From positions 64,001 through 128,000 of the IMG/VR virus record IMGVR_UViG_3300034171_000062: a DNA stretch of 64,000 nt; one strand, 5' to 3'. This DNA is from a virus (taxonomy: Duplodnaviria > Caudoviricetes). Below the pieces are notes generated by a model. That model saw only the letters and a program-made list of their open reading frames with translations, had not been told where the DNA came from and ran no database searches. A program made the position numbers and the translations under genes. Positions 1-16,288 of this stretch are shown here, in pieces. Within the stretch, counting starts at the first letter, position 1. Each line of letters starts with the position of its first letter.

Positions 1-663
1 GTCGAACGTCAAGTTTGAGGGGACGTTGACGTCGGCCCCGGCCGCAATACCGTTCAACTTAGACAACAAGGCGTCGGTCAGGTCGTTCTCCGACAGACCT
101 TTGCCCGTCACCTTATCGACCTTCCCTGCTAACGCCGACCCAAGGCCTGCAATGGAGGCGATGGTCAGATTCTCTAGAGTGTCTCGGTTCACCTTAATGA
201 AATCAACGATCTCTTGAATCTCGTCGAGGGTGCCGTCATCGCTGTTGATCAGGGCGTTGATCGCATCCACCGCGTCCTTAAGAACCTTACCCTGCGCCGC
301 ACTCAAGGGCGCATCGGCGGTGTTGCTGGTCAGGTCGTTAACGATGGTCGCTATGTCGATCTTTAACCCAAGTGCCTGATCCAGCTGTGTTTGGGTGTAA
401 TATCGAGCGTCGTGATCGCCACTGAGGGTGTGATCGTAGATCCCTTTGGCGGTGAGCAGTTGACCAACGCTGTTTACGTTACGTGCTGAGGTGACGGCGT
501 TGGGTATCTCACTTAGACCCACTTGCACTTTGGTGACACCGTGTGGATTATCAACTCGACCAAAGTGAGTGTCCGTGCGCCCAAAGAGTCCGTCTAACCG
601 TTCTTTGAGCACGGTGAACATCGATTCGATGGACGACCGTAGTTGCTTATCTGATTCAGACAT
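1..663 (-). CDS. Tail fibre-like virion protein, N-terminal part (runs off the left edge of the window)
   Basis: Manual translation from ATG at 663: MSESDKQLRSSIESMF...HFGRVDNPHGVTKVQVGLSEIPN...LSAAQGKVLKD...TLDEIQEIVDFIK...KVDKVTGKGLSEND. The frame is open to position 1. It carries the NPHxVTKxQVGL repeat seen in the other fibre genes. Not in the ORF track because it is truncated. Confidence 0.8.
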   Translation of the reverse strand, partial: MSESDKQLRSSIESMFTVLKERLDGLFGRTDTHFGRVDNPHGVTKVQVGLSEIPNAVTSARNVNSVGQLLTAKGIYDHTLSGDHDARYYTQTQLDQALGLKIDIATIVNDLTSNTADAPLSAAQGKVLKDAVDAINALINSDDGTLDEIQEIVDFIKVNRDTLENLTIASIAGLGSALAGKVDKVTGKGLSENDLTDALLSKLNGIAAGADVNVPSNLTFD

Positions 664-682
664 GATGGTAATTCCCCGTACC

Positions 683-730
683 CAAAAAATAATAAGACGA
701 GGGCTCCCCGGTTACAGGATGCCCTCGTCT
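683..730 (-). terminator. Intrinsic terminator after the 85-aa gene
   Basis: Inverted repeat AGACGAGGGC (695-704) / GCCCTCGTCT (721-730), followed on the minus strand by TTATTATTTTT. Confidence 0.65.
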
Positions 731-754
731 GGAATCCGAACGTTGCGCTATACC

Positions 755-1012
755 TTAATCCTGAGCGGCGGTGGCGTTGATCTTAGTCCCAGACCACTTC
801 TCGTAAATCTCTTTTACAGCGGTGACGTCTTTGGTGTTGTTCAGAGCGTTGTCGATCAGTTTGATGATCTTATCGTCGATTTCATTGTCGGTCTTCGCCG
901 CCAACTTCACCAAGTGATCTACAATGATGCGCTTTACCGCTGCGGTCCCCAAAAGACTCAGAAGCATGGTGCCAATGGTGCTGAGGATGGATGTCTTTTT
1001 CTGTTCGCTCAT
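755..1012 (-). CDS. Small protein with an N-terminal hydrophobic helix (holin-like or membrane-associated; function unknown)
   Basis: 85 aa; hydrophobic ILSTIGTMLLSLLGTAAV then a charged helical region; GGGAG RBS upstream. Confidence 0.6.
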   Translation of the reverse strand: MSEQKKTSILSTIGTMLLSLLGTAAVKRIIVDHLVKLAAKTDNEIDDKIIKLIDNALNNTKDVTAVKEIYEKWSGTKINATAAQD

Positions 1013-1080
1013 GATACTACTCCCGGTCTATGAAAAGAAACACTGTCATATCATTTCCATGGCTTCCGCCTATACCGAGG

Positions 1081-1109
1081 CGGAATAAAAGGAGACCCGA
1101 AGGTCTCCT
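1081..1109 (-). terminator. Terminator closing the biosynthetic cluster
   Basis: Minus strand AGGAGACC-TTCG-GGTCTCCT-TTTATTCCG, overlapping the stop codon of the last desaturase. Confidence 0.85.
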
Positions 1110-1920
1110 AGGATTTTGTTCCTTGGCGGAGGAGTTCTTGTAGGTCTTTTGGGCGGTCCGGTTGCGGGCGTCTTCGAATCAGTTGAATGAACCACGCAGC
1201 AAAGTCCACCTCGTACCAACGCTCACTGATGTTCCAGCGACTGGGGTCGGCGTGGTGGTTGTTGTGCCAACCGTCACCAACCGTGACTATGTTCACCAAC
1301 CAGCTGTTGCGGCTGTCGTCGTCCGTCTCGTGGTTGCGGTAGCCCCACGTGTGACCGAAGGTGTTAAAGAACCCTTTGACGTGAAACAGCAACGCGGCAG
1401 GGATCGCATATAAGAACAGCGCTGCCTTCCAGTCAACCGCCCACAGTCCAAACGCATACGCTGCCAATATAGGTACGTAGTACTTATGGGTTAATTGATA
1501 CCCACGCGCGCGCACTTCCCGTTTGGCCACTCTTGGGTCAAGAAAGACCTTGCGTTCCATCCATTCGCCGAACCAAGCTTCTCGCCAACCCTGAACAGTA
1601 GGGCTGTGTGAGTCCCGGTTGGTGTCTGCGTACTTGTGGTGTGTGCGGTGTACCAATAGGTTCATCAGTGGTGAAGCGATGGTGCACAGCATACCACACG
1701 TCACTAGAAGGTACCGCCAAGCGGGAGATGTCTCAAACGAGCGGTGGGCTTCCAGTCGATGATACCCCACAGTTACCCCAAAGAACCCGTACACAAAGTA
1801 CGCTAAAAGCATCCACCCCAACCAGTCCCACGTGCCGTGGTAGATAGCCCAGGCGAGTCCTACGGTTGCGGTGAACTGGAGCGCGATCTGCCAGTACTTC
1901 AGCTGCACGTGTGGCTTCAT
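1108..1920 (-). CDS. Membrane fatty-acid desaturase (delta-9/DesC/Ole1-like), copy 4
   Basis: His boxes HRLEAH, HRTHH and GDGWHNNHH; transmembrane segments; ATGA overlap with the upstream desaturase. Confidence 0.92.
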   Translation of the reverse strand: MKPHVQLKYWQIALQFTATVGLAWAIYHGTWDWLGWMLLAYFVYGFFGVTVGYHRLEAHRSFETSPAWRYLLVTCGMLCTIASPLMNLLVHRTHHKYADTNRDSHSPTVQGWREAWFGEWMERKVFLDPRVAKREVRARGYQLTHKYYVPILAAYAFGLWAVDWKAALFLYAIPAALLFHVKGFFNTFGHTWGYRNHETDDDSRNSWLVNIVTVGDGWHNNHHADPSRWNISERWYEVDFAAWFIQLIRRRPQPDRPKDLQELLRQGTKS

Positions 1921-2678
1921 GATGTCCTCGGTTTACGGATCAGACGAATGATGACGGCGGGCAAATCCACTTCCCACCATTTATCCCAGTTGTTCCAATC
2001 GTTTGGACGTTGATGGTGGTTGTTGTGATACCCTTCTCCGACAAACAGCCACGCCACCAGTAGCGAATTGGTGGAGGCATCGTCGACGTCGTGGTTGCGG
2101 TATCCGCCGGTGTGGCACCAGGCCGAGGCAAACCCAAAGATCACCCACATCAAGGCACTGGGAAGTGCGTACGCAAACAAGAACAGACGCCAATCGATCA
2201 CCAGGAGAATCAACGCGGTGCCGTAGACGATCTTGAAATAGTTGCGGTGAAAGAATTGAACGTCCTTCTCTCGAGCCAAGTCCCGGATGGATCTGGGTGA
2301 GCACTTCTTCAGATTCCACCCAATAGACAACCAGGCTCGGTAGAACCCCAACAACCGAGGGCTGTGTGGGTCGCCGTCTGTGTCTGGATACATGTGATGC
2401 GTACGGTGCACCATGGTCCAGGTAATAGGCGATCCTAATGACATCATCGAACCACAGTACAACAAGAACCAGCGGATGGGTGTGTAGGTCTCATAACTGC
2501 GATGGGCCACGTATCGGTGAAAGCCGACCGAGTTCCCAAAGACGCTGAGGGTCACGTACACCCCCAGGGTCCACCACAACCACTGCCACTGACCGAACGC
2601 AGTCAGATACGCAATGGCAACCCCTCCGAAGAGGGCGTTAAAAAGATTGAGGCAGTCTAATCTGCGCGCTTCAGTCAT
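1917..2678 (-). CDS. Membrane fatty-acid desaturase (delta-9-like), copy 3
   Basis: His boxes HRYVAH, HRTHH and GEGYHNNHH; DPHSP motif; AGGAGA RBS. Confidence 0.92.
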   Translation of the reverse strand: MTEARRLDCLNLFNALFGGVAIAYLTAFGQWQWLWWTLGVYVTLSVFGNSVGFHRYVAHRSYETYTPIRWFLLYCGSMMSLGSPITWTMVHRTHHMYPDTDGDPHSPRLLGFYRAWLSIGWNLKKCSPRSIRDLAREKDVQFFHRNYFKIVYGTALILLVIDWRLFLFAYALPSALMWVIFGFASAWCHTGGYRNHDVDDASTNSLLVAWLFVGEGYHNNHHQRPNDWNNWDKWWEVDLPAVIIRLIRKPRTS

Positions 2679-2687
2679 GATGGTCTC

Positions 2688-3482
2688 CTACGTCTTGAAT
2701 CGTGGCAACGGATGGTGGCGGTGGTGAATGAGTTTGATGACCTGCGCCGGGATGTCCCACTCCCACCAATTTACCCGAGTGTTCCACCGAGACGGGTGCG
2801 CGTGGTGGTTGTTGTGCCAGCCTTCGCCCATGGTGATCAGGTTCGCGATCCAACTGTTGCGACTGGTGTCGCCCTTGAGATCAAACGTCCGATAGCCGTG
2901 TAGGTGAGGGATGACGATGATGCCGCAGGCGCTGTGCAGCGACAGCACCGCCGGAATCGCATAGACAAAAACCACGCCTTGCCACCCAAGAGTAGCAAAC
3001 AGCGCCACGTTCCACACCGCAATGACGTGGAAGTAGTATTTGTGGGTCCATTTGTAGAACGGGTCTTTACGCAACCGCTTGGAGACTTGCCCGGCTTTCT
3101 TAAACCCTGAGGTGTTCCAAGCCCCAAACCACGCGCGTAAGACCCCAATGCGCTGAGGGCTGTGTGGGTCGTGTTCGTCGTCGGTGTGTATGTGGTGGAT
3201 GCGGTGCACGATCGTCCATGCCATGGGTGACCCCACGGTGGTGACAATGCCACAGAACATCAACACCGCTTCAATGGGTCGGTAGGTCTTAAAGGCCCCA
3301 TGGGCTAAGAACCGATGGAACCCAACGTCGATGCCTAAGATCCCTGTGACCCAATACGTCAGCCAGGCGGTCAGCAACCACAGCCACTGTCCTTCCATCA
3401 CCGCCCAGACGCCCACTGGGATCGCCACGGCGTGCGTCAGTATCTGGAGTAGGCGAACCCCCACGTTGTGCGTTAACTTCAC
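2688..3482 (-). CDS. Membrane fatty-acid desaturase (delta-9-like), copy 2
   Basis: His boxes HRFLAH, HRIHH and GEGWHNNHH; DPHSP motif; GTG start. Confidence 0.92.
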   Translation of the reverse strand: MKLTHNVGVRLLQILTHAVAIPVGVWAVMEGQWLWLLTAWLTYWVTGILGIDVGFHRFLAHGAFKTYRPIEAVLMFCGIVTTVGSPMAWTIVHRIHHIHTDDEHDPHSPQRIGVLRAWFGAWNTSGFKKAGQVSKRLRKDPFYKWTHKYYFHVIAVWNVALFATLGWQGVVFVYAIPAVLSLHSACGIIVIPHLHGYRTFDLKGDTSRNSWIANLITMGEGWHNNHHAHPSRWNTRVNWWEWDIPAQVIKLIHHRHHPLPRFKT

Positions 3483-3487
3483 GGTAA

Positions 3488-4246
3488 TTACCCTCTTCGT
3501 TTAATAACCCAAATGAACCAAGCCGTAGGATCGAGTTCCCACCACTTGTGCTGAAAACTGTACCGCCCAGGGTAAGCATGGTGGTTGTTGTGCCAGCCGT
3601 CGCCCACGGTTAAAATATGGGTGACCAGACTGTTCTTAGAATGGTCTTTGGTCTCGTAGTTCCGATAGCCCCATTGATGTGCAAAGATCCCCAACACGTA
3701 GGCGATTAAGAACGCATGCAACGCCGCGGGGAGCACGTACCCCGCCAACACCAAGTCCAACCCACCGAGGACGTAGAGACCCACCACCGCTAACGCGTGT
3801 ATGTAGAAATACCACCGATCCATAAACACCATGATCGGATCTTTCAGCACGTCCTTCATCGCTACCCGACGCCCGTCGTGTTCGAGGTGGTACAGGCAGA
3901 ACAACGCTTTCCAATGCCCCACGACTCGATGGCAATGGGGGTCTTTCTCCGTGTCCGAGTATCGGTGGTGGGCGCGGTGTATCCAGGCCCAACTGATCGG
4001 ACTGCCCGTCAAACACAGCACGCTGAGTATCCCCATTACGAACTCCACCGGGGGGTAGGTCTCATAACTGCGGTGAGAAACCAAGCGGTGCAGATAAGCG
4101 TTGAACCCCACGAGTTGTTGAACGCAGTACACAGCCAATGTTACCCACAGTAAGTCCGGGCGCTCCCAGAGAAGGTAAGCCGTCGCAGGAAAGAACGCCG
4201 CCCAAACGTAGAGTCGGTAGACGTTCATCCGAGGGGTACTATACAT
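3488..4246 (-). CDS. Membrane fatty-acid desaturase (delta-9-like), copy 1
   Basis: His boxes HRLVSH, HRAHH and GDGWHNNHH. Start moved to ATG 4246 (MYSTPR), which overlaps the ketosynthase stop codon. Confidence 0.9.
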   Translation of the reverse strand: MYSTPRMNVYRLYVWAAFFPATAYLLWERPDLLWVTLAVYCVQQLVGFNAYLHRLVSHRSYETYPPVEFVMGILSVLCLTGSPISWAWIHRAHHRYSDTEKDPHCHRVVGHWKALFCLYHLEHDGRRVAMKDVLKDPIMVFMDRWYFYIHALAVVGLYVLGGLDLVLAGYVLPAALHAFLIAYVLGIFAHQWGYRNYETKDHSKNSLVTHILTVGDGWHNNHHAYPGRYSFQHKWWELDPTAWFIWVIKRRG

Positions 4247-5456
4247 AGCGAGAAACTCCCAGTACGCAGTTGAGCCCACCAAAACCAAACGCGTTTTTGA
4301 CAAACGCCGTCATGGGTTTTCGAATGGGGGCCTTAGGTAAGTTGATGGGGGGCAAGTCTGGATCGTATTCCAAGTTGCCGTGTGAAACAATGAAACCTTC
4401 TTGCATCATGTACAGACACAGGATCAATTCAACGATGCCACTGGCTGTGACGCTGTGGCCGAGGAGCCGTTTAAGAGCCACCACAGGCACGTCTTTAGAT
4501 CTCTCGCACTCGGCCAACACTTTGGCTTCTATAGCGTCGCCTTTGAGCGTAGAGGTCGCGTGAGCAGAGATAAAGTCCGGACAGATGCCATACCGATGCC
4601 ATAGGGTGTCTAAGACCGACGATAATGAGGCCAGTCCACCTTCGCCGGTGGGGTTGGTTAGGTCGTGTCCATCGGAGTAATCGGCGTACTCCAACGCGAT
4701 GCCGTAGTTGCGTTGCTGGGTCTCGGGGCGTTTAAAATACGCGGCCCTGGATTCCAAGATCACACACCCGGCGCCTTCGCCGACGGTGAAGCCTGCTCGG
4801 TGCGGTGAGAAGGGGACCGAGGCGTGCTCCAAGTTCGGCCCGCGATACAACGCCCGCATGGCATCGAACCCTCCGACAATTTCTTGTAAGACCTTCTCAA
4901 CGCTGACGCAAATGACAACGTCGGCCCGACCTAACTCAATCAGGTCCATGCCCTGAGTCACCACACGGAGGCCGCTGGCACAGGCGTGTTGTACGGTGTG
5001 GATTGGTCCCTTAATCCCCAGAAGGGTGGCTAGAGGACCCGTCACAGCCGTAGGGAGTGACTTTAAGAGATCGAAGGGCGAACTGCGTTTGTCTGGGTTC
5101 ATTAACGACGCATGAGCGTCCATCCCAGTGGCCCCAAACGCTGAAACCAACGCCACCCTCGGCCCTGTCTCCGAATCCCGACACACGGCCTCAGGATCGT
5201 ATCCGGCGTCTTTTAACGCTTTGCGGATAACGTAGTAAGAGAGGTTCAAGGCGTCGTTAGCAATACTCCGGGGGATGTCTGGCGCTAAGAATTGGGTATT
5301 CTCAATGCAAGGTGCGACGGAGGTGGCCTTGACGTGGGGCCAAAGTTCGATCAACGGTTGTATAGTCACGCGTTCCATCTTCAACGCTGAAACGATCTCT
5401 GAATGGTCGGTCCCATACGGTGAGAGAGAGCCGATGCCGGTAATGATTGCAGACAT
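4239..5456 (-). CDS. fabF: Beta-ketoacyl-ACP synthase (FabF/FabB-type, KAS I/II family)
   Basis: Start MSAIITGIG at 5456 with an ACAGGA RBS. Catalytic Cys in HACASG, His in SAHATST and His in LLGHS. Also has PF..RAGF..GEGAG and C-terminal NAFGFGGLN. Confidence 0.88.
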   Translation of the reverse strand: MSAIITGIGSLSPYGTDHSEIVSALKMERVTIQPLIELWPHVKATSVAPCIENTQFLAPDIPRSIANDALNLSYYVIRKALKDAGYDPEAVCRDSETGPRVALVSAFGATGMDAHASLMNPDKRSSPFDLLKSLPTAVTGPLATLLGIKGPIHTVQHACASGLRVVTQGMDLIELGRADVVICVSVEKVLQEIVGGFDAMRALYRGPNLEHASVPFSPHRAGFTVGEGAGCVILESRAAYFKRPETQQRNYGIALEYADYSDGHDLTNPTGEGGLASLSSVLDTLWHRYGICPDFISAHATSTLKGDAIEAKVLAECERSKDVPVVALKRLLGHSVTASGIVELILCLYMMQEGFIVSHGNLEYDPDLPPINLPKAPIRKPMTAFVKNAFGFGGLNCVLGVSRYV

Positions 5457-5527
5457 GGCGATGTCCTGTGTAAATGTGGGTTTGAATCGATATATGTGAG
5501 ACCAGGGTGCACAATTACGTTGGACCA

Positions 5528-5565
5528 TAAGGCAACCGCAGCCCGATTGGACCACCGTTGCCTTA
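5528..5565. repeat. 9-bp inverted repeat in the only sizeable intergenic gap of the cluster
   Basis: TAAGGCAAC (5528-5536) / GTTGCCTTA (5557-5565); on the minus strand the right arm runs into TTATGG. Confidence 0.55.
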
Positions 5566-5572
5566 AGTAAGA

Positions 5573-6097
5573 TCACTCTAAAAAGTCGATGATCAATAAG
5601 CCCAGTTGGGACCCATTACTGCCCCCCACTAAGGTGAGAAACTTTCCACTCAGTCGAACGATCTCTTTCACGCCCACCGACTCGTCGTTGATCAGCACGT
5701 CGTTCTCCGCCACCGCCAAGTACCCGGTCTGGGTCAACTCGTAGGTCTCCCCCGGTGCCAGCACTATCTTCTCAGCGGTGATGACGCGGTGTTTGGCGTT
5801 GCCGGTGCTCAAACAAAAGCCAACGGTGCCGTCTTCCAGCGCTTCCACTTCGGCCCACCGAGGGTTGGCCTTTGTAGGCACGGGGTCCGAGGCCCACAGA
5901 GTGTACTCGTTAAACGTGTTGCGGGTATGGGTACCGCCTTGCACAATAAACCGAGCTTCTTTAACGGGGATGAAATCGTCGGCCATGGTTTCTTGGTAGT
6001 CGGGTTTTCTACCTAGAATGAACTTCTCACCTTTGTCCACGTAGAACCAGGCGCAGGCTACGCCTTCGTCTTTTAGTCGATGCACTCGAGTTCGCAT
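5573..6097 (-). CDS. Hypothetical beta-rich protein (possibly cupin-like) in the biosynthetic cluster
   Basis: Start MRTRVHRL at 6097 with an AAGGA RBS; co-oriented in the operon; beta-strand-like patterns such as KIVLAPGETYEL. Confidence 0.65.
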   Translation of the reverse strand: MRTRVHRLKDEGVACAWFYVDKGEKFILGRKPDYQETMADDFIPVKEARFIVQGGTHTRNTFNEYTLWASDPVPTKANPRWAEVEALEDGTVGFCLSTGNAKHRVITAEKIVLAPGETYELTQTGYLAVAENDVLINDESVGVKEIVRLSGKFLTLVGGSNGSQLGLLIIDFLE

Positions 6098-6107
6098 GTC
6101 TTCGTCC

Positions 6108-6662
6108 TTACTCTTTAAGGTAAACGTCAATGGGAATGGCCAAACGCAACCCAACGCGATGTTCCTGCACGTAGTGTTGCAAGTACGACGGAAAGATCAG
6201 CAGCCCTCCCCGCTCGGGCTTGTGCTTGTACGTTCGGAAGTGGTTGTTGATCACGTCGTGTGGGTACCCACGAGAAGCCAATCCGCGAGGGTCTACCATA
6301 GACAGGTACCCTTCTTCGCCTTCCAAGTAATACAACGCTGAGACGTGAGCACCGCTGTGGTGGTGGAGTGGACTGCCGTGACCGTCACTGCTGTTGCGTA
6401 CCCAGGCTTGCCAATTGTCGATCAGGGGTTCGTAGTTAAACTGATCCCACGCGTACTGCATCATCAAAGGCACCACGTTCTCCGCAATGAACTTCTTGAG
6501 GTTGGGGTACTGAGGTAAGTGCAGATTGCGCGTTTCATCGATGTGCTGCCCGTCCAACTGCCTCGGTTGCATCATCGCCTCGTACACTAGGGCGTCGTGG
6601 TTCTCGGCAACAACCGTATCGGCGCGAAGGACGACTGGCCAAGGGTGAATGTCGATGGGCAT
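6108..6662 (-). CDS. Putative 2OG-Fe(II) oxygenase (TIGR02466-like), copy 2
   Basis: W..HHHSG..SALYYL..DPRG..GLLIFPSYLQHYV..RLAI motif series; AAGGAG RBS. Confidence 0.8.
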   Translation of the reverse strand: MPIDIHPWPVVLRADTVVAENHDALVYEAMMQPRQLDGQHIDETRNLHLPQYPNLKKFIAENVVPLMMQYAWDQFNYEPLIDNWQAWVRNSSDGHGSPLHHHSGAHVSALYYLEGEEGYLSMVDPRGLASRGYPHDVINNHFRTYKHKPERGGLLIFPSYLQHYVQEHRVGLRLAIPIDVYLKE

Positions 6663-6671
6663 GGAAACTCC

Positions 6672-7238
6672 TTATGTCGGTTCTTGCAGATAGATATCCA
6701 CTGGGATAGACACCCGCATGTCTTTGTCGTGACCGTCGACGTAGTGTTGCAAGTACGACGGAAAGATCACCAAGAGACCTTCTTTGGGGACCTCGCTAAA
6801 CAGATTGAAATGGTCGTTGCGCACCTGCGTTGGATACCCTCGACACGCCGACCCACGAGGATCGACCAAGTTGATCGCGCCACCGGAACACGCCATAGGG
6901 TAATAGATAGCGGACAACACCGACCCACTGTGTTCGTGCAACTTCATTCCTTGGCCGTCGGTGGTGACCCGGACCCAGGCGTTGTACGTGTACTGGACAG
7001 CGTCCAACCCCCAGCAGTCGTTAAGGTAAGCGAGCATCCTCGGAAGGATGTGCTCGTTGAGAAACGCGTTGGTCTGTGGGAAGTCAGTGTCCGTGACCGT
7101 GTTCTCATCCAGATCGAGGTTGTCAAAGTTACGGTTGGTTAAGCGCATCAGAGACTCGGTCACCAGGACCTCATTGTCCACGTCCTCTAACACGCTGCGC
7201 CTAACTACTGTTCGCCAAGGTTCGATGTCTTGAAACAT
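6672..7238 (-). CDS. Putative 2OG-Fe(II) oxygenase (TIGR02466-like), copy 1
   Basis: AWV..HEHSG..SAIYYP..DPRG..GLLVIFPSYLQHYV..RVSI; paralog of the downstream gene; start MFQDIEP at 7238 with a GGAGG RBS. Confidence 0.8.
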   Translation of the reverse strand: MFQDIEPWRTVVRRSVLEDVDNEVLVTESLMRLTNRNFDNLDLDENTVTDTDFPQTNAFLNEHILPRMLAYLNDCWGLDAVQYTYNAWVRVTTDGQGMKLHEHSGSVLSAIYYPMACSGGAINLVDPRGSACRGYPTQVRNDHFNLFSEVPKEGLLVIFPSYLQHYVDGHDKDMRVSIPVDIYLQEPT

Positions 7239-7657
7239 TCTGCCTCCGCCATGCACTCGGCTCGAAAATACGCAACGGTGTAGTCAACCCACTGGCCCGT
7301 TAAAGGAATGTTTTCCACCCCCCCAAAGGTATCAAGGATGGCGTCGTACGTGGTTGGGTCTTGTGAGTAAGGCACGAAATATTCGTCGTTGCCGTACAGC
7401 AGATCCGGGTCGTCCAACACCTCGAAGAACGCTTCGTTGAAGTGCTCCCACAAGAGACGCGCGTAGATCAACGCCACCGCATACGACTTCGCCGGATAGA
7501 CCAACACGTCTTGAGGGTCGGTGAAGTAAGCCACGGCCGGCACCACTAAGTCGTCGTGGTCCACCACGATGTCAAAGTTCTCCAACGCGTCCGTGTGTTC
7601 GGGCGTCATCAGGTGATACAGTTGCTGGTTGAGTTTCCAGGTTTTTTTGTGACTCAT
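7205..7657 (-). CDS. Hypothetical acidic protein of the radical SAM cluster
   Basis: ATGA overlap with the upstream rSAM stop; distinctive YPAKSYAVALIYA and DDPDLLYGNDEYFVPY segments. Confidence 0.75.
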   Translation of the reverse strand: MSHKKTWKLNQQLYHLMTPEHTDALENFDIVVDHDDLVVPAVAYFTDPQDVLVYPAKSYAVALIYARLLWEHFNEAFFEVLDDPDLLYGNDEYFVPYSQDPTTYDAILDTFGGVENIPLTGQWVDYTVAYFRAECMAEAECFKTSNLGEQ

Positions 7658-8742
7658 GCGCTCCGCCTCACCCAATTAAATTCACTTCTCAAGTCGCGGG
7701 CGGTGGAAATGCACCGATCGGCCTTGGTGATCTCCATCACTTTCTGCACGCCCCGTACCGCGCACTTGGCAACGAACTCACAGCCGCCACAGACGCCGTT
7801 GGACTGGGCTAACGTGATACACTCGAACATAGACGCTTCTTCTTGAGTAAAGATGTTCTCGAAGGTCCAGGGTCCGGCAACCCGATGTTCCGGTTCGAAT
7901 GAGGAAAACGCTTCTACGATGAACGGGGGGACAAACATCTCTCCGTTGCGATACACCACGTCCCAATCCTCACCCTCGTTGGTTTGCAGTTCCACAATTT
8001 CAAAGTGCTCGCCCTTCTCGTTGGCCGCGATGCGAGACTGAACCAGTAAGTGGTTCAAGTGGTGGAGGCTGGTTAGAAACCGATCCCGATTGGCTGGGTC
8101 TCGCAAACTTTCACGCCCATGGGGTAAAATGATGTCACTGTGGCTGGTGGGATGAAGATCGATGCGGTACGCCCGGGTCATGATGTCACTGGTCATGGTA
8201 AACCCACGTTTGGCGTCGTTGGCTATCGACTCTTCAAAGTTCATCACGCTGTAGACCCGAGTGATCTTCACCGTCTTCAAACAACTTTCAAAATACGCCA
8301 CCCGTTTGCAAAGCTTATCGACGTAGGACGGGTTGTCGATGTGTCTTACTTCAAAGGGCACGGTAAACTTCAACAACCCATTGGGAATCATCGCCTCCAT
8401 CTGTTGGGCCAGCTTTTGATAAATGAGGGGGTTGGGATCAAGGAACGCGCAGTTCAAAGTCGTCTTCATGAACCGCCGGGCAATGGACAAAACTCTGGGG
8501 TGTTCCAGAACGGCGTCTCTATTGTCAGAACTCAAAATGTCCGTGGGTCCTATGATGAAGTTGAGCATCTCCAGTTCTGCCACCTCGAAGCTGTCAAGCA
8601 TAGCGTCGATCCGGTCAAATTCTTCTTCAGTAGGAAGAACGTTGTCTTCTTTCTCCACCATACAGCCAGAGCAGTTGTGACGACATCCGGAGGCGATCTC
8701 CATAGTGAAGTCGATTAACTTATTGATTTGGGATATGTGCAT
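7654..8742 (-). CDS. Divergent radical SAM protein with a C-terminal Cys cluster (SPASM-like), rSAM-6
   Basis: CRHNCSGC motif near the true N-terminus (ATG 8742, MHISQ); C-terminal CGGCEFVAKC...C; GGEP replaced by GPTD. Confidence 0.75.
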   Translation of the reverse strand: MHISQINKLIDFTMEIASGCRHNCSGCMVEKEDNVLPTEEEFDRIDAMLDSFEVAELEMLNFIIGPTDILSSDNRDAVLEHPRVLSIARRFMKTTLNCAFLDPNPLIYQKLAQQMEAMIPNGLLKFTVPFEVRHIDNPSYVDKLCKRVAYFESCLKTVKITRVYSVMNFEESIANDAKRGFTMTSDIMTRAYRIDLHPTSHSDIILPHGRESLRDPANRDRFLTSLHHLNHLLVQSRIAANEKGEHFEIVELQTNEGEDWDVVYRNGEMFVPPFIVEAFSSFEPEHRVAGPWTFENIFTQEEASMFECITLAQSNGVCGGCEFVAKCAVRGVQKVMEITKADRCISTARDLRSEFNWVRRSA

Positions 8743-8746
8743 GTGC

Positions 8747-9802
8747 TCACCAGTTGCATTTGTGACCGAGTTTGCCAAGTATGGATAAACACCGATCCGT
8801 CTCCAGTAATCGCTGAACACGGTGAACGCCCCGCGTAGCACATTTACTGACAAATCGACATCCGGAACAGTCATTAGACTGCGACGCGCGCGTAATCGAT
8901 TCGAAGAAGGTGTCTTGATCCGAACGTTGTATTGAATCCAATGTCCAAGGCTTCTCAAATTTAAAGTCGGGGTGGAAGACAGCAATCGGACTGTTAATAA
9001 ACGGTGCGATGTAAAGATCCCCATTCCGATAGGCCAAATGGTAGTCGGCCCCAACGTGAGCGCTCAAGTCGTCGACTGTGAACTCGTATCCGGCGTCCAC
9101 TTGATTGGCAAAGGTTTGGTTCTGTTTTAAGATGGCGCGCAAGAACTCATCGCGATCTTCCTTTACGCTGAGATCCCGGCGGCCGTAGTGAAACACGAAC
9201 GTGGTGGTGTCCGATTTCTCAAACAACTCGATGTGTCGGGTGGCGTAAAGAACCTCTTCATTGATCAGGCCGTTATCAAGCATGGACTCGGTCATGTTGA
9301 CGATGGCCGTCACGCTGGCGATTGTGACTGTTTCTAAGTGTTGATTGAGCCAAGCAATCCGCCCTCGGAGTTTCTCCAAGTAGGCGACGTTGCGGTGGTG
9401 TTTCAATTCAACGGGCACCAAGAACTCTACGTTCAGACCGGGCATAAACGCGTCCAACTCTTTAGCGAATTCCACGTAAGCATCGGCCTTGGGATTCAAG
9501 AACGAACAGTTAAAGACCACCGATTTAAACCCAGTAACTAGATCCCGTATGATGGGATGAGTCAATACGTCGGTCCGGTTGCTGGCCGACATGACGTCCA
9601 CCGGCGCAAACTCCATCCACGACATCTCCCACCCGCGCTCACGCACGTCGTCCACCACGTCCCGTAAGGCGTGGAGGTCGTCTTCGGTGTATGGGGTTAC
9701 ACCTGTGGTGTTAACGCTGCACCCTGAACACCCGTAGTCGCAGTCTTTCAGTAGTTCCAGTGCCAGGTTACCAATGTTGTCCCCTCGGATCATAATCGTC
9801 AT
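8747..9802 (-). CDS. Divergent radical SAM protein with a C-terminal Cys cluster, rSAM-5 (paralog of rSAM-6)
   Basis: CDYGCSGC; C-terminal CSGCRFVSKC...C; shares YRNG.L/M...PFI and KCA.RGV motifs with rSAM-6; ATGA overlap. Confidence 0.75.
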   Translation of the reverse strand: MTIMIRGDNIGNLALELLKDCDYGCSGCSVNTTGVTPYTEDDLHALRDVVDDVRERGWEMSWMEFAPVDVMSASNRTDVLTHPIIRDLVTGFKSVVFNCSFLNPKADAYVEFAKELDAFMPGLNVEFLVPVELKHHRNVAYLEKLRGRIAWLNQHLETVTIASVTAIVNMTESMLDNGLINEEVLYATRHIELFEKSDTTTFVFHYGRRDLSVKEDRDEFLRAILKQNQTFANQVDAGYEFTVDDLSAHVGADYHLAYRNGDLYIAPFINSPIAVFHPDFKFEKPWTLDSIQRSDQDTFFESITRASQSNDCSGCRFVSKCATRGVHRVQRLLETDRCLSILGKLGHKCNW

Positions 9803-10743
9803 TGTGTCTCAGCCCATTGCAATAAGTGAATGAACCCGTTGCACGACTGGTCGGTACTCTGCACGTCTCTCAGGTGTTCTGACAGACACCGTCCAAAATA
9901 CGTACAGCCGCTGCAACCTGATGTCAGTACCCTCGTCTTCTCAGTGTCACACCACGCAAAATACGCGTCGATGCTGTCCATCTCCAAGAAGAACTCGTTG
10001 TCCGCCTCATCGAACTCCAACACGCCAAACTGGCCGCTGGGGGTGATGTACACATGGTCGTCGGAAAACGCGTTGCGCTGGCCAGACAGACTCTCTTGAA
10101 TCTGCTGAGCGTTGACGAATTCAAACTTCATCTCAGACTGACGTTCGTACAATTGCTTAATGAACGCCTCGTACTCCGGGTATCCTACCGGCAACTGATT
10201 GGCCTGATTCGGACTGTAGGGCTTGATCTCCACCGAACTGAGATTGGCCAGAAGATTCAATGTCCCAACAATCTCATCGGGGGTCTTTGCTAGAACCTCT
10301 GGGGTGGCCAAGATCAGAATCGAGAACTCCCGCTCCATCTTTAACATCTGTTGAAAGACGTGTTCGTGTCTCTCGCGTGCATCGAAGTCGTAGCTGACTG
10401 ACAAGTACCAGTCCGGGTCGTGCATCACAGCGTTGTTCACAGACAGATTGGTGATGATGTTCAGATCGTCGATCCCGCGGGCGTGGAGACCTTCTTTTAA
10501 TTCGTTGATGTACTCCGAAGGCAACAGCAACGGTTCGCCTCCGTAGAGGTCCACCATACCCACGGGTCTATGTGCCAGCACCTCATCCACACGTTCAAAC
10601 AACCGTGTCAGCGACAGACGTTTCTTGTCTGCCAGTTGCACTGGAGTCAAGTAACAGAAGTTGCATCGGAAGTTGCAGTAGTACGAAGGATTTACCGACA
10701 AATTGATCGGTTGATCAGTCGACGTTAACGAGTGTAAGTTCAT
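9799..10743 (-). CDS. Radical SAM protein with a partial SPASM/twitch domain, rSAM-4
   Basis: NPSYYCNFRCNFCY, YGGEP, ITNL; C-terminal CSGCTYFGRC...C; likely start ATG 10743. Confidence 0.88.
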   Translation of the reverse strand: MNLHSLTSTDQPINLSVNPSYYCNFRCNFCYLTPVQLADKKRLSLTRLFERVDEVLAHRPVGMVDLYGGEPLLLPSEYINELKEGLHARGIDDLNIITNLSVNNAVMHDPDWYLSVSYDFDARERHEHVFQQMLKMEREFSILILATPEVLAKTPDEIVGTLNLLANLSSVEIKPYSPNQANQLPVGYPEYEAFIKQLYERQSEMKFEFVNAQQIQESLSGQRNAFSDDHVYITPSGQFGVLEFDEADNEFFLEMDSIDAYFAWCDTEKTRVLTSGCSGCTYFGRCLSEHLRDVQSTDQSCNGFIHLLQWAETQ

Positions 10744-11812
10744 CGATACTCTCATCCACATAGGGGGTTGGGATCAAGATCCCGGTTAATCCGTTGGCTT
10801 CGATGAGGTCGGGGGCCAGTGCTTTCATCTTGCGACAGTGTTCTTCGACGCGGCCGGTCTTCTTGGCGTCTCGGATGCTCTTCTTACAGCCGTTGCAAAT
10901 GGAGAACATGGGACAGAAGTAACAGTCCTGCTTTAAACTGTCCAACTCAAACACCTGAAGTGGGAGTTGCTTCTTACCCGTCATTTCTTCTTCGAAGTTG
11001 ATCGGGTATTCCCCATCGTCACCAAAGGAACCGCAGGAGTAATAGTCCCCACTCGGCTGCATGGCCCGGATGCCAGAGTCGCACGTGCGCTTCAAAGGAC
11101 ACGTGGTAGCACCACCCGCTAGGGCAACGGTCATTTGTTGTGTGCCGTGTTCCCACTCAGTCAGTCCTCGGCGATGGAGGTCCAGATAGACTTCGTACAT
11201 GTCCGCTACCAAGAAGTGCTGACCTTCATTGCCCATGGTGCCTTTCTTGGTTTGAACAACCGGCCCGGAGGCGTTGGCGTAGTTCAGCTTACACGACACA
11301 CCCATGGCCTTGGCCAACTCTACGGTTTTCACCGCTTCATGGCGATTACTCTCATCGACGACGGCGATGAACGTGGGGCGGTATCCTACGTGCTCTAACA
11401 TGGTGTCTGAGACGGCCCAGAACTCGTCTTCGGTGAACGGGGTATAATCCCCCTTCAATCGTTTCTCACCGTACTGGAAGCTCGTAGCGACGCCCACACG
11501 AGGGTGATTGAACAGAGGCGCCCACTTCCCCGGTTTCTTGTAGAACGGCCAGAGATTGGAGGTCAGTGAGATGCTGGTGTTTTCCATCTTCAACTCGTCC
11601 AACATCTCAATCAAGGCCCAGTAATACGCCGGTGGCATCATTAACGGGTCGCCGCCGTTGACGATGATGGTGTTGGTTTCCGGGAAACGTTCCAAGAACC
11701 GACGTATATCGACCAACTCCAGAATGTCGTTGCTGTCCTCGGCGATGTTTGTGCTGGAACAGAACGTGCATTTAAAGTTGCATTTCTCCGTGGGTTTGAT
11801 TATGAGATCAAT
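10715..11812 (-). CDS. Radical SAM/SPASM protein, rSAM-3 (ATT start codon)
   Basis: The ORF track begins at TTG 11716, but the frame extends to ATT 11812: IDLIIKPTEKCNFKCTFCSST, containing CxxxCxxC. AGGAGG lies 8 nt upstream and an in-frame TAG lies 5 codons upstream. Also has NGGDP and SPASM Cys CPLKRTC..YSCG..CYFCPMFSICNGC..C. Confidence 0.88.
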   Translation of the reverse strand: MDLIIKPTEKCNFKCTFCSSTNIAEDSNDILELVDIRRFLERFPETNTIIVNGGDPLMMPPAYYWALIEMLDELKMENTSISLTSNLWPFYKKPGKWAPLFNHPRVGVATSFQYGEKRLKGDYTPFTEDEFWAVSDTMLEHVGYRPTFIAVVDESNRHEAVKTVELAKAMGVSCKLNYANASGPVVQTKKGTMGNEGQHFLVADMYEVYLDLHRRGLTEWEHGTQQMTVALAGGATTCPLKRTCDSGIRAMQPSGDYYSCGSFGDDGEYPINFEEEMTGKKQLPLQVFELDSLKQDCYFCPMFSICNGCKKSIRDAKKTGRVEEHCRKMKALAPDLIEANGLTGILIPTPYVDESIDELTLVNVD

Positions 11813-11841
11813 CTTACTACCCTCCTAGCCCGGAGGCTCGT

Positions 11842-12900
11842 TTAAACGTTCAGTGTGGGTATGCGTTGAGCGGCACCATCGCTGACGGCGTCGATGTATC
11901 GATGGGTGGCTTTGTACACACACTCATCCATTTCGTCTCGGTGGCGATACGCGTGTTGCATGAAGCACCCCAACTCACAGCGTTGAAAGTACTCGCACGT
12001 CAAGCACCCATATTTCTCCATGAAGTGTTCTTCAATGCCCCGATTGCTCTGCGGATCGATGGGCACTTCGTAGATCTCTTCGGCAATCTTTGGGTCGATG
12101 AGGTTACCGCACCCACAGGTAGTGCCGTCTTCCAAAATCAACTTACTGGATCGACACGACAAACTACTGGACTTGCGTTCCATCCACCCAGCGATCGGTT
12201 CGCAGTTTGGGTAGTTATCGATCAAAAACGTAAACAACTTGAACAGATCCAAATCGCCTGGGGCGGCTGGAGTAACTTCATCGGGCATCAGGTAATCGAA
12301 ATAGATCTTAAACCCAGCGCCATAGACCCATTTAAAGAACGCGTCCTGATCTCTTAGGAAGTGATCGATGTTCTGCTTGGTTGCGACTAGACAGACGCTT
12401 CTAATGATTCTGGGTCCGAAGTATTCTAAGTTGGCTTTAAACGCTTCAAACTGCTTGCGGTTAAAGCGACCTTTGGGATCGTAGGACGTCGTGAACGTCG
12501 TGGGAATGCCCGCCGTTGCGCACTCTTCAATGAACAGACTCAATTGAGTTCGATCGTCCGTCACCAGGTTGGTCACCCAGTTAAGCGTGACTCGGATGTT
12601 ATTCAAGCGTGCGTGGGCTACGATCGCTTGTGCCAGTTTTACGTACGCCGCGCGCATCGTGGGAGTAAAGACCTCCGGCGCGAAGACCTCCCCACCCATG
12701 ATGTTAAACACCACAACCGACTTGGTCTCCTTGTCCAGAAGCTTCACCACCGCGGGCAATTTCCCCAGTATATCGTCCACGCCTACTAAGGAGTCGTGGT
12801 CCTGCCAGCAGAAACTGCACGACAGGTTACAGTACTCGAACAGGTGTATCGTGTATTCCTGTTCGGGGTCTCGCTTGCTGTTCAATAAGAGATCGGTCAT
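11842..12900 (-). CDS. Radical SAM/SPASM protein, rSAM-2
   Basis: HLFEYCNLSCSFCW, MGGE, VTNL; C-terminal C..CGC..CLTCEYFQRCELGC..C. Confidence 0.88.
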   Translation of the reverse strand: MTDLLLNSKRDPEQEYTIHLFEYCNLSCSFCWQDHDSLVGVDDILGKLPAVVKLLDKETKSVVVFNIMGGEVFAPEVFTPTMRAAYVKLAQAIVAHARLNNIRVTLNWVTNLVTDDRTQLSLFIEECATAGIPTTFTTSYDPKGRFNRKQFEAFKANLEYFGPRIIRSVCLVATKQNIDHFLRDQDAFFKWVYGAGFKIYFDYLMPDEVTPAAPGDLDLFKLFTFLIDNYPNCEPIAGWMERKSSSLSCRSSKLILEDGTTCGCGNLIDPKIAEEIYEVPIDPQSNRGIEEHFMEKYGCLTCEYFQRCELGCFMQHAYRHRDEMDECVYKATHRYIDAVSDGAAQRIPTLNV

Positions 12901-13910
12901 AGTTCGAACCCTTTACACGCCTCCGACTTCAATCCCACCGCCCAATGGATGACGTGGACTTTTAACTTGTCCATGTCGGCCCAATCTAGGTAGTCGGTGT
13001 GTTCGTTGCTGGCACGTATCATGGAAATGAAAAGATCGGTTGCTTCGCCATCCTCAATCGGGTCGACGCTGCTGATGATCCTTAGTTTGGCCCGTTCGGC
13101 TTCGATTTGCAGTTTCTCGATCTGAGGTTCCTGATCCAGATACAAGGCAAAGTCCCGACACAGCGCGTCTTGAGTGGGTTGTTTCATCCGCGTGATCCGA
13201 AGCGTCAGATTGGGGTCGGTCAAGAAATTGAACCCAGGTACCTTACGCAGTAAATTCACCTCGCCGACGTGCTGGCTGGCGTCGTATCCGTACTTCTTCT
13301 GCATGTGGGCTGAGAAGAACAAAGACACCAGATTACGCTGAATTTCATGCACGTGATTGATCGTCGACCGTAACGCAAACATACGTACGTCCTCGGCGAT
13401 GCTTACGCGCTTGTTGCCTGAAAGATAGTCCAACAACTTATACTCCAGAGAGAGCTTCTCTGGAATGTCGCGCACCACCGTCCGAAGGTCGGCGTCGCCT
13501 TCGAGGTTGGCGTAATCTGAAACCATCTCTTTAACGACTTCCCCTTTAGGTAACGCCACGCCCTGAGTATTCAATGCCACCAGTTCCAGTCCCAATAGGG
13601 TTTGTACTTGACTCAGAGTGGCGTTGGGGAAAATGGCTTTCAGCCACTTACTGATCAACTTACCGTAAGACTCAAGACTGGTGTAGATAACGATCTTCTT
13701 GTCCCCTACGCCTTTATACTGCGTGAGTAACTTAGTGAAACCGGTGGCCACAAACTCATCTTCGTCAGCGGTCAGTCCCATTAGGATAGGACCAGCAAGT
13801 TCTCGCTCGTCGTAGTTCTCAGCCATAACCTTGGAGGCCAGGTAGAACGCATGTTTTTCCGATTTGATGCTATCCACGGCTAGGTAGATGCGATTAAACA
13901 AATGATACAT
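12897..13910 (-). CDS. Hypothetical protein of the radical SAM cluster
   Basis: 337-aa ORF with TAATG overlap upstream and ATGA overlap downstream; no recognised motif. Confidence 0.8.
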   Translation of the reverse strand: MYHLFNRIYLAVDSIKSEKHAFYLASKVMAENYDERELAGPILMGLTADEDEFVATGFTKLLTQYKGVGDKKIVIYTSLESYGKLISKWLKAIFPNATLSQVQTLLGLELVALNTQGVALPKGEVVKEMVSDYANLEGDADLRTVVRDIPEKLSLEYKLLDYLSGNKRVSIAEDVRMFALRSTINHVHEIQRNLVSLFFSAHMQKKYGYDASQHVGEVNLLRKVPGFNFLTDPNLTLRITRMKQPTQDALCRDFALYLDQEPQIEKLQIEAERAKLRIISSVDPIEDGEATDLFISMIRASNEHTDYLDWADMDKLKVHVIHWAVGLKSEACKGFEL

Positions 13911-14635
13911 TACGTTTCCTCGATGGCTATTTCGTCGTTCTTTAAAGCGACGAGCGCGTCTTCGAACTCTTCGTTCGTAAGCATCTCATCGTCCACCATA
14001 GACACCAGAAGAACGTGTAAGTCGTTCTCTGGAATGGCCCAAAACGAAAACAGGTTCTTACTTTTGAACATGTAGTCGTTAAAGTACTTGGTGTAATTCC
14101 GCACCAGGCCGTCGTTTACCACTTCCATGGCGATAGGAAACAACGGATTGTCAAACAGATTGACAAAGTTGATGCCTTTGGTGTCTGCCGTGTCGTCGAC
14201 TGGGTAGTTGTTGACCAGCGCTTGCAGGGCGTCGTCTTGAATGGTTGTCATCATGTACAAACTCATGGAGTCGATCAACGACAGCCACTTGCCCAATATA
14301 CCGAGTCGGTCTTTAATCCATTTGTCGGTCACCCAATTGCACACACCCAATCCCTTGATGTGGAGCATTACTTCCAACACCATGGTTTCCAACTTCTTAC
14401 ATTTCAGTAAGGTGGGTAGGTTCAAATACGCGTCCAACACCTCCAAGGCGTCCTCACCCAAAAAGGTGACTTCAACCGGTAGGTCTAGGTTACTTAAGTA
14501 GATCAGGGCTTGCAGTGGGTTTACTCGATCCTTCGAGGCCGACAGGTCGATCTCCAAAGAGACCTCTGGATCGCCGATGATCTCCCGAAGGGTGGCGACG
14601 GGAATGGGGACGGTGGTTTGGACTACAGTACTCAT
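13910..14635 (-). CDS. Hypothetical protein of the radical SAM cluster
   Basis: Start MSTVVQTT at 14635 overlaps the stop of the CHxx-tail gene (TAATG); acidic, helical. Confidence 0.8.
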   Translation of the reverse strand: MSTVVQTTVPIPVATLREIIGDPEVSLEIDLSASKDRVNPLQALIYLSNLDLPVEVTFLGEDALEVLDAYLNLPTLLKCKKLETMVLEVMLHIKGLGVCNWVTDKWIKDRLGILGKWLSLIDSMSLYMMTTIQDDALQALVNNYPVDDTADTKGINFVNLFDNPLFPIAMEVVNDGLVRNYTKYFNDYMFKSKNLFSFWAIPENDLHVLLVSMVDDEMLTNEEFEDALVALKNDEIAIEET

Positions 14636-15192
14636 TAACGACGTCCTCTTGAGTTGTGACAGCTGTCGTGACATTGGGCGTGACAGATGTCGCGCGCTAA
14701 CGTGTGGGTGGTGTTCACTCGGGCGTAGTTATAATACGCATTGCGTAACCGTTCAATGAACCCGTCCGCGCCCGCCCGATCGATGGCGTAGCCGTCGTCC
14801 ACCGTGCCCGCAGCTTGGGCTGGGATGTTGATTTCCTGGGCGGCGGTTAGATTGGCGATGGTCGTGGTGTCGTATATCACTCTATACCCATTGCCTGACG
14901 ACCACCCAGTCCGGTTCTGACGGATATAAATGCGTGTCCGGCGGATGCGGGAGTAGTTCTTCATATACGCATGCAGGGTAGCGCGCATGGTGTCGGCATC
15001 CAATACCCCACCCGGACCTTCAATCGCCGCGTAGGGCGGCAATGAGTAGTATCCGCTGGTAGTGCCCCCAAACCATCCGTACAGGGAATTTGCTGGGTAG
15101 TTGTTGGTGCCCCAGGATATCCCACTGCGGGACAGGGCACTTACCCTTTCACTGAATTTTAAGTAGACGTCTGCTGTCTTGATCTCGGCCAT
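14635..15192 (-). CDS. Candidate substrate/precursor protein with C-terminal (CHxx)3-RGRR tail; virion-protein-like body
   Basis: 185 aa ending RDICHAQCHDSCHNSRGRR; Gly/Thr/Tyr-rich body; AGGA RBS; embedded among rSAM genes. Confidence 0.7.
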   Translation of the reverse strand: MAEIKTADVYLKFSERVSALSRSGISWGTNNYPANSLYGWFGGTTSGYYSLPPYAAIEGPGGVLDADTMRATLHAYMKNYSRIRRTRIYIRQNRTGWSSGNGYRVIYDTTTIANLTAAQEINIPAQAAGTVDDGYAIDRAGADGFIERLRNAYYNYARVNTTHTLARDICHAQCHDSCHNSRGRR

Positions 15193-15238
15193 GTCAAGGT
15201 TCCTATAAGTTTAAATGTCCATACGATCTAACGATCCT

Positions 15239-16288
15239 TTATCCCACGTTAAGTACCGGAATGATATCCGTCTCTCCGTATTTAAAGTGAGATAGGAGCA
15301 ATCTCAATCCAGGACACGAGTTGCCCTGCCAAATCAGTCGATGGCAGTCCCCGCCACAGACATCGAATAAGTGACAACTTAAGCAGTTGGGGTTAACGTC
15401 CAGTTCGTCGACAATGCGTTCCGTACGACCGTCGCTTAAAAGGAACTCTTCCAAATTGTCGTCCAAGGTCCCGTTCGATTCCACCTTGGCGCCGTTGGCA
15501 CACCCGCCGATGTTTCCTGCGCCGTCTACCGTAAACAAGTTCTGTTCGCACGTGCGGCAGTTGGTGTCTACGTTATACTGGTTGGTTTCGAACTTAGTCT
15601 CTATGGTTTCCAACGTGCCGATGGTGAAGTTGGGTTTCAGACGTTTGTACGCGAAGTACAAATCGTAGTAAAACTTATCCACCGCCCGATTGTCTGGGAA
15701 CATATGGGGGTTGTCCACCGCGTTGCCGTCGGAAGTTAGACGTTCGATGGCCACGTCCGTCACCCCAAACGTCCCCCACAACTTGATCAACTCATCGACG
15801 TTGTACGTAAGAGTCTGATCGGTGACGGTCACAAACATCTTAATGGTGATGTTCATGTCTCGCAGAGTCTTCAAGTTCCCAAGCCACTGTTGATACATCC
15901 GCTCGGTCTTAAATCGATACACTGGGTCCCAACTCGTACCGACGTGACTCCCCATCACTTTGATGAAAAAGTTCGTGTGTTCATCGGTCAACTTATATAT
16001 GAGATTGGTGGTGGCGCCGATTGAGATGTCGTCCCAGCGTTCTTCGCCCACCAGACGTTTGACCGTTAAGGCAAAGTCCCAATGTTCGTGAATAGGACGT
16101 AAGAAAGGCTCGCCCCCATGTAACTCCAAATGTAAATGTTCGTCGTTGAACTGCTGAGCCAACTCACTGACCCACCCAGCAACCTTCTGAGTATCCCAAG
16201 CAGTCTTCGCCCCCTTCGACCCTGAGGTAAAGCAGTGATCGCAATCCAGATTACAAGTGTCCGTTGGTTTGATGTACACTACCTTCAT
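15239..16288 (-). CDS. Radical SAM/SPASM protein, rSAM-1
   Basis: YIKPTDTCNLDCDHCF, HGGEP, TTNL; SPASM CRTC..GGC..CLSCHLFDVCGGDC..C; ATGA overlap with the JmjC gene. Confidence 0.92.
   Translation of the reverse strand: MKVVYIKPTDTCNLDCDHCFTSGSKGAKTAWDTQKVAGWVSELAQQFNDEHLHLELHGGEPFLRPIHEHWDFALTVKRLVGEERWDDISIGATTNLIYKLTDEHTNFFIKVMGSHVGTSWDPVYRFKTERMYQQWLGNLKTLRDMNITIKMFVTVTDQTLTYNVDELIKLWGTFGVTDVAIERLTSDGNAVDNPHMFPDNRAVDKFYYDLYFAYKRLKPNFTIGTLETIETKFETNQYNVDTNCRTCEQNLFTVDGAGNIGGCANGAKVESNGTLDDNLEEFLLSDGRTERIVDELDVNPNCLSCHLFDVCGGDCHRLIWQGNSCPGLRLLLSHFKYGETDIIPVLNVG

Follow-up and report, generated by a model that had tools for sequence, protein, structure and literature searches.

A ketosynthase (KS) and five divergent membrane desaturases make up a conserved gene module in a group of large uncultured phages. 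The module was identified in a stretch of 64,000 nucleotides (the window) that spans bases 64001-128000 of the IMG/VR virus record IMGVR_UViG_3300034171_000062 (G000). Four of the desaturase genes (des1 to des4) stand in tandem behind the KS gene in the window, and the fifth (des5) lies elsewhere in the record. All five belong to separate orthologue groups that are shared with related phages, and no carrier protein or activating enzyme was found in the record. We interpret the module, with a probability of roughly 45%, as a phage-borne, host-dependent system that would diversify acyl unsaturation late in infection.

The source record is a linear sequence of 170,557 bp with a completeness of 62% as estimated by CheckV, and its structural proteins match tail and fibre families. 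Among cultured phages, the closest relatives of an 825-amino-acid (aa) protein encoded by G000 are phiKZ-like jumbo phages of Xanthomonas, Erwinia, Burkholderia, Ralstonia and Pseudomonas, at about 29-35% identity; because these are its best cultured relatives, the term phiKZ-like is reasonable for G000 in a broad sense. No GenBank phage gave a megablast match to window positions 1-9000. The locus was compared with those of at least six related uncultured phage contigs (G001, G002, L102, L103, L104 and L106), for a set of seven loci. G002 is a 222,493-bp record with terminal repeats and a completeness of 100%.

Desaturases and ketosynthase of the module

The core genes are as follows, in window coordinates unless stated otherwise.

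4239-5456, minus strand: KS, 405 aa from MSAII; PF00109 (E 5e-26) and PF02801 (E 7e-16); KAS I/II-like (beta-ketoacyl-ACP synthase; ACP, acyl carrier protein), elongating type
3488-4246, minus strand: des4, 252 aa from the ATG at 4246; HRLVSH, HRAHH, GDGWHNNHH; PF00487 E 3e-17
2688-3482, minus strand: des3, 264 aa; HRFLAH, HRIHH, GEGWHNNHH; PF00487 E 4e-16
1917-2678, minus strand: des2, 253 aa; HRYVAH, HRTHH, GEGYHNNHH; PF00487 E 8e-16; orthologue group support 93/97
1108-1920, minus strand: des1, 270 aa; HRLEAH, HRTHH, GDGWHNNHH; PF00487 E 1e-15; orthologue group support 100/100
Genome 58639-59394 (L005:6639-7394), outside the window, minus strand: des5, 251 aa; HRVLTH, HNAHH, HGSHH

The genes are tightly packed: the start of des4 overlaps the KS stop by 8 nucleotides (nt), and the des2 stop overlaps the des1 start (ATGA). 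A preliminary description of the window, made from its letters alone, had reported four intact desaturases with three histidine boxes each, and this was upheld by family matches and by alignment with SCD1, with des5 added as a further copy. All of des1 to des4 matched PF00487 (FA_desaturase) at 59-64 bits against a cut-off of 29.7 (E 3e-17 to 1e-15), and all carry HRxxxH, HRxHH and G[DE]G[WY]HNNHH. The series of residues preceding HNNHH, read in the order of transcription, is GDGW, GEGW, GEGY, GDGW, exactly as first described. The nine metal-binding histidines of SCD1 were all aligned (mouse SCD1, 4YMK, E 1.4e-13 for des3). Across the seven loci, every metal histidine was retained in 27 of 28 orthologues, and des1 to des5 are complete. 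The exception is a des2-type orthologue, L104:13492-14274, in which the third box reads QNNHH in place of HNNHH.

The only NCBIfam match of the desaturases was the DesA family, at 32-87 bits against a cut-off of 400, and by this measure they are not an equivalog of DesA. In each of the five proteins, a simple hydropathy scan placed hydrophobic segments ahead of the first histidine box and also between the second and the third. By motifs and family, des1 to des5 are assigned to the SCD/DesC/DesA-type integral-membrane di-iron acyl desaturases. The Asn of the SCD1 N-x3-H motif is retained in only two of the five orthologue groups, and des1 keeps the motif (the equivalent of SCD1 N265/H269). The most conserved of the desaturases is des3, which belongs to a slow-evolving clade common to many viral loci (85-row tree). 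The more diverged des5 lies 5.7 kb downstream of the des1-des4 array, behind an S74 fibre gene and three genes upstream of a muramidase endolysin; five related phages carry orthologues of it, and its sisters occur in viral arrays that are unrelated.

The KS retains the catalytic motifs of a condensing enzyme, namely the Cys (HACASG), His (AHATST), Lys and His (LKRLLGHS) and the GFGG loop. These aligned with Cys163, His298, Lys328, His333 and the F392/GFGG loop of Escherichia coli FabB (E 1e-40), in agreement with the intact Cys-His-His triad noted earlier, and the catalytic residues are invariant in 15 members of its clade. The earlier label of a FabF-like enzyme is better widened to FabB/FabF-like, with a clade of its own: in a PDB search the protein was slightly nearer to FabB (1e-40) than to FabF (about 1e-32), and it scored below both equivalog cut-offs (181 against 494 bits for fabF, TIGR03150; 160 against 630 bits for FabB, NF005935). 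In a tree that included E. coli FabB and FabF, the KS and its close relatives formed a clade of their own outside both, with a support of 100.

Close homologues of the KS were rare. About 17 were found in 5.8 billion proteins (43-61% identity, all on metagenome contigs), the next matches being at 32%, and a search for a cellular source found none above 33% identity in one genome for each of 185,579 species. The KS clade thus appears, so far, only on uncultured, phage-like contigs. Translated searches (tblastn) also returned KS matches at 25-32% identity in records labelled as phage, which we set aside as they look like bacterial fabB/fabF genes in contaminated or fragmentary records.

Synteny, paralogue age and absent partner genes

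Directly behind the KS gene stood a des4-type desaturase in all seven loci, and in L102 and L106 this minimal pair was the whole of the module. Other loci carried more copies. G001 has six desaturases in total; in G002, three follow the KS and one follows the fibre gene, and des5 is present as well. In L103 and L104 the fibre gene is succeeded by three small genes, then by the KS gene with four desaturases, a bicupin gene, des5, a membrane protein and a muramidase. Wherever it was found, the module lay between tail-fibre genes and an endolysin.

We built a maximum-likelihood tree of the orthologues, with ultrafast bootstrap and Shimodaira-Hasegawa-like approximate likelihood ratio test (SH-aLRT) support. 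It resolved five orthologue groups (support 93-100), each with members from G000, G001, G002, L103 and L104, while the G000 paralogues are just 24-41% identical to one another. The set of five thus predates these phages and has been maintained by selection. Such old, one-to-one groups argue against copies gained recently for dosage, and equally against genes captured from hosts time and again. The preliminary description had called the paralogues clearly diverged; their retention as five groups in related phages bears this out and speaks against simple dosage.

That description had also found no ACP, ligase or thioesterase in the window, an absence that extends to the whole 170.6-kb record and to the complete 222-kb relative. 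Searches of G000, G001 and G002 gave no match to ACP (PF00550), phosphopantetheinyl transferase (PPTase; PF01648), AMP-binding ligase (PF00501) or thioesterase (PF00975, the thioesterase family covered; other hydrolase families were not searched). The search for ACP and acyltransferase genes in the rest of the genome, which had been proposed as a check, likewise found none in these three records, PlsC-type (PF01553) being the acyltransferase family covered, and FabA/FabZ (PF07977) and FabG-type reductase (PF13561) gave no match either. Nor was there a match in them to rubredoxin (PF00301) or 2Fe-2S ferredoxin (PF00111), and cytochrome b5 gave a single sub-threshold match, elsewhere in G000.

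A maximum-sensitivity local search with E. coli AcpP and two viral ACPs against all open frames of at least 40 residues also yielded no carrier protein. Two candidates were examined and rejected. The product of orf193 was considered as a hidden carrier or as a dehydratase of the FabA kind; neither Pfam nor NCBIfam gave a match to it, and its model is a bicupin. An 85-aa protein encoded at 755-1012, whose TDNEIDD sequence is vaguely ACP-like, has an unconserved Ser, an N-terminal membrane helix and a noise-level score. Since the records encode neither a carrier nor a ligase, PPTase or thioesterase, the module has to rely on the ACP or the lipids of its host, which agrees with the earlier proposal that the enzymes act on these; to judge from the genes searched for, it must likewise require host reductant.

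Desaturase arrays are not confined to these relatives. Scanning IMG/VR with a desaturase alignment recovered 528 confirmed viral stretches. Among the best 78 loci, 40 had at least two desaturases within 10 kb, eight had at least four, and one (L081) had eleven. In the 85-row tree, all 70 viral copies grouped together with a support of 100, separate from the 15 bacterial relatives sampled.

Two of these arrays came with further genes of lipid metabolism. L081:3779-19622 (IMGVR_UViG_3300013006_001903) holds its eleven desaturases in 16 kb together with a KS, an ATP-grasp protein, a PP-loop ATPase and, within the array, an 80-aa ACP (PF00550, E 3e-11), and a rubrerythrin gene stands at the array end; the viral nature of this contig is unsure because its CheckV completeness is 2%. 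L073:16600-20458 (IMGVR_UViG_3300015244_001137), on a large phage contig, is an operon of Rieske oxygenase, PP-loop ATPase, FabA-like dehydratase, ACP-like protein and KS, with two desaturases and an ABC1 kinase in its vicinity. In the tree, the KS genes of L081, L073 and L038 belong to lineages separate from the G000 KS. Linkage of KS and desaturases has therefore arisen repeatedly in large phages, in some cases together with a carrier of the phage's own.

Predicted transcription unit and accessory genes

Two terminator-like hairpins, each with 5-6 G-C pairs in the stem, were the only strong ones on the minus strand in positions 1-18000. These and the accessory genes next to the KS are listed below.

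1090-1109, minus strand: terminator-like hairpin at the 3' end of the unit; 8-bp stem, UUCG loop and T-run, directly after the des1 stop
5573-6097, minus strand: bicupin accessory protein, 174 aa; no conserved histidines; rare family
6108-6662, minus strand: 2-oxoglutarate (2OG)-Fe(II) oxygenase (PF13759), 184 aa
6672-7256, minus strand: second 2OG-Fe(II) oxygenase (PF13759), 194 aa; 40% identical to the first
16831-16854, minus strand: terminator-like hairpin at the 5' boundary of the unit; 10-bp stem and UUCG loop, after the upstream fibre-like gene

Between these boundaries, a JmjC-like gene, radical S-adenosylmethionine (radical-SAM) genes, the oxygenases, the bicupin gene, KS and des4 to des1 look like one unit of about 15.7 kb. 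Because of the hairpins at 16854-16831 and 1109-1090, the unit would be insulated from the fibre genes on both sides. The 116-nt gap ahead of the KS start (5457-5572, minus strand) contains an inverted repeat, AAGGCAAC ... GTTGCCTT, which may form a hairpin with a regulatory role inside the operon.

The bicupin protein belongs to a family with only about 10 representatives in 1.84 billion proteins, and its homologues lie within the KS/desaturase modules of five relatives. Its AlphaFold2 (AF2) model is compact, with a mean predicted local distance difference test (pLDDT) score of 94.8, and matched bicupins at a template modelling (TM) score of about 0.55. In four of the seven loci, the two PF13759 oxygenases precede the bicupin and KS genes. 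Farther upstream (7654-16794, minus strand), the unit encodes the JmjC-like protein, several radical-SAM proteins, of which just three reach a Pfam match, two phrog_31457 proteins and a 185-aa protein. This block is present in L102 and G001 and absent from L103, L104 and L106, and in these last three the module has neither radical-SAM nor 2OG genes.

Two other genes lie near the desaturases. The 85-aa protein rejected above as a carrier (755-1012, minus strand) is conserved, with a TDNxIDD motif besides its membrane helix; its gene lies between the des1 terminator and an S74 fibre gene, and L007 and L102 have homologues at the corresponding position. At genome positions 60558-61511 (L005:8558-9511, minus strand), between the S74 fibre gene and des5, a 317-aa protein is encoded whose AF2 model (pLDDT 77.6) had as its top structural matches only the beta-Kdo (3-deoxy-D-manno-oct-2-ulosonic acid) transferases WbbB, KpsC and KrkA, at a TM score of about 0.4 and E 3e-5. 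It was found only in G000, G001 and G002, and comparison with a 413-aa protein of L103 revealed no relation.

Proposed function and comparison with known systems

From the integrity and family of the genes, their synteny, the age of the paralogues and the gene absences, we infer the likely substrates, division of labour, timing and benefit of the module. The KS would work only on host acyl-ACP and malonyl-ACP, and would extend chains or pull flux through host fatty-acid synthesis. Inserted in the host inner membrane, des4, the fixed partner of the KS, and the four other paralogues would act as oxygen-dependent desaturases that draw electrons from host carriers. Because they have been kept as separate orthologue groups, the paralogues most likely differ from one another in the position, the chain length or the lipid or thioester substrate on which each acts. 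Host acyl chains would then become more unsaturated, in differing ways, late in infection. The preliminary description had linked the genes to the lipid-bound vesicle of early infection, for which the locus gives no evidence: the terminator-bounded unit is flanked by tail-fibre genes and has an endolysin close by, and this arrangement looks late, not early.

Several observations weigh against a general diversification of host acyl chains. Five paralogues exceed the need of any known bacterial membrane-homeoviscous system. In G000 the predicted transcript of the module also covers the bicupin gene, two 2OG oxygenases and six radical-SAM genes, an arrangement more suggestive of a pathway that tailors a single special product. 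Finally, the ACP inside the L081 array implies that related viral desaturases may act on thioester-bound chains and not on membrane lipids. In the main rival explanation, the paralogues would act in sequence on one chain bound to host ACP or to the KS, giving a polyunsaturated, conjugated or otherwise unusual acyl group that the oxygenases, bicupin and radical-SAM enzymes may tailor further; it would serve as a toxin, signal or anchor, distinct from bulk membrane lipid. Such a dedicated lipid would account for the age and co-retention of the five paralogues and for the radical-SAM, 2OG and bicupin genes sharing one terminator-bounded unit. The nearest folds of the bicupin protein include the diene isomerases AerE and BacB (a weak match, TM 0.55), other viral arrays hold ACP, KS, rubrerythrin and ATP-grasp genes (L081) or adjoin a FabA-ACP-KS operon (L073), and in work on polyynes three desaturases act jointly on an ACP-bound chain (PMC9828172). 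We nevertheless regard it as doubtful, since the complete relative lacks ACP, ligase, thioesterase and rubredoxin, the radical-SAM and 2OG genes are separable from the module (it occurs without them in L103, L104 and L106), and the enzymes are SCD/DesA-type by family match, with a JamB type not shown. Ladderane-type chemistry, which would combine KS, radical-SAM enzymes and desaturases, was set aside as the module occurs in those same three loci without radical-SAM genes. A bolder form of the proposal is a phage-directed lipid that the host cannot make: with host ACP as the carrier, the KS and five specialised desaturases would build a conjugated or multiply unsaturated chain, possibly tailored by the oxygenases, bicupin or radical-SAM enzymes or joined to a Kdo-type glycan. 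This, too, we consider a long shot, though if true it would make the module a phage secondary-lipid pathway and not a fluidity helper.

A plainer possibility is that all copies do the same Delta9 job to maintain membrane fluidity, with copy number reflecting dosage or repeated capture and the KS boosting fatty-acid supply. All copies share the SCD-type motif set, this is the published reading for viruses with five copies of viral fatty acid desaturases (vFADs; PMC7300359), and cyanophage vFADs are Delta9 enzymes on C16 chains (PMC5776448). Identities of only 24-41% among the paralogues, the position of the viral copies in one clade apart from the sampled bacterial ones, and the retention of the SCD1 N-x3-H Asn in only two of five groups are difficult to reconcile with interchangeable copies, and the one-to-one orthologues in five phages fit a single old radiation under selection, making this explanation unlikely. 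Yet another use for an acyl product would be decoration of the virion or cell surface, by joining it to a fibre-associated protein or to the glycolipid of the Kdo-transferase-like enzyme. The constant placement between tail-fibre genes and endolysin is in keeping with this, as is the beta-Kdo-transferase-like model encoded between the fibre gene and des5 in G000, G001 and G002; KpsC acts on a lipid-linked acceptor. Position among late genes is, however, weak functional evidence, the fold match is modest, neither L103 nor the other minimal modules have the Kdo-transferase-like gene, and the acyltransferase search was negative, so that we hold decoration to be improbable. Host-dependent diversification of acyl unsaturation thus remains our preferred explanation.

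The systems closest in composition each share part of this module. In Pseudomonas, unsaturated fatty acids come from the anaerobic FabA/FabB route and the aerobic desaturases DesA and DesB. The phages similarly combine a FabB-like condensing enzyme with Delta9-type membrane desaturases, but they lack FabA, their KS lies outside FabB and FabF, and they have five paralogues against one or two. Polyyne and alkyne cassettes (JamABC; the Pgn/Cay desaturase triad) are defined by a fatty acyl-AMP ligase, ACP, thioesterase and rubredoxin (PMC9828172, PMC8406139). They resemble the phage module in having several distinct membrane desaturases together, which in the polyyne case are jointly needed. Unlike them, the phage module has no acyl-AMP ligase (JamA), dedicated ACP (JamC), thioesterase or rubredoxin, and it has a ketosynthase, which those cassettes lack. 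On family matches the phage desaturases side with SCD1 and the DesA family, and their motifs include HNNHH. Of the defining features of the cassettes, judged by gene content, multiple desaturases are the only one present in the G000 module. The alkynyl or polyyne product that the preliminary description had entertained is disfavoured accordingly, the ligase, ACP, thioesterase and rubredoxin being absent and the desaturases being of the SCD/DesA type.

Among phages, freshwater pelagimyophages have been listed with fabF and a stearoyl-CoA desaturase (PMC7029224), and so also pair a ketosynthase with a desaturase in one genome. Their desaturases are single, and the modules of the other viral loci L081 and L073 come with a phage ACP. 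Single DesC-like desaturases of cyanophages are active Delta9 enzymes (Roitman et al. 2017, PMC5776448). Five desaturases apiece were described in two viruses of Arctic cryopeg brine, as fluidity helpers gained from hosts (Zhong et al. 2020, PMC7300359); neither report mentions a ketosynthase or an accessory bicupin. The vFADs and the present enzymes are alike in being phage SCD/DesC-type proteins with three histidine boxes, in clades without cellular members and, for the brine viruses, in multiple copies. They differ in that G000 adds a KS and a bicupin gene and that its paralogues represent five orthologue groups of old age whose order after the KS is fixed; the published copy number was read as dosage or repeated capture. 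Five-copy phage desaturases are thus already published, and we found no report in the literature of the ketosynthase link or of a fixed five-gene set.

Viral desaturases are usually filed as single genes that help with membrane fluidity. A fixed and old set of five paralogues, a KS lineage seen here only on uncultured, phage-like contigs, and arrays of up to 11 desaturases in other viral contigs, some with an ACP, point to an organised lipid chemistry that giant phages conduct with carriers of the host. Should the paralogues prove to have different positions or substrates, they would provide enzymology with a panel of compact membrane desaturases (about 250 aa), and phages would reshape host lipids far more specifically than has been assumed.

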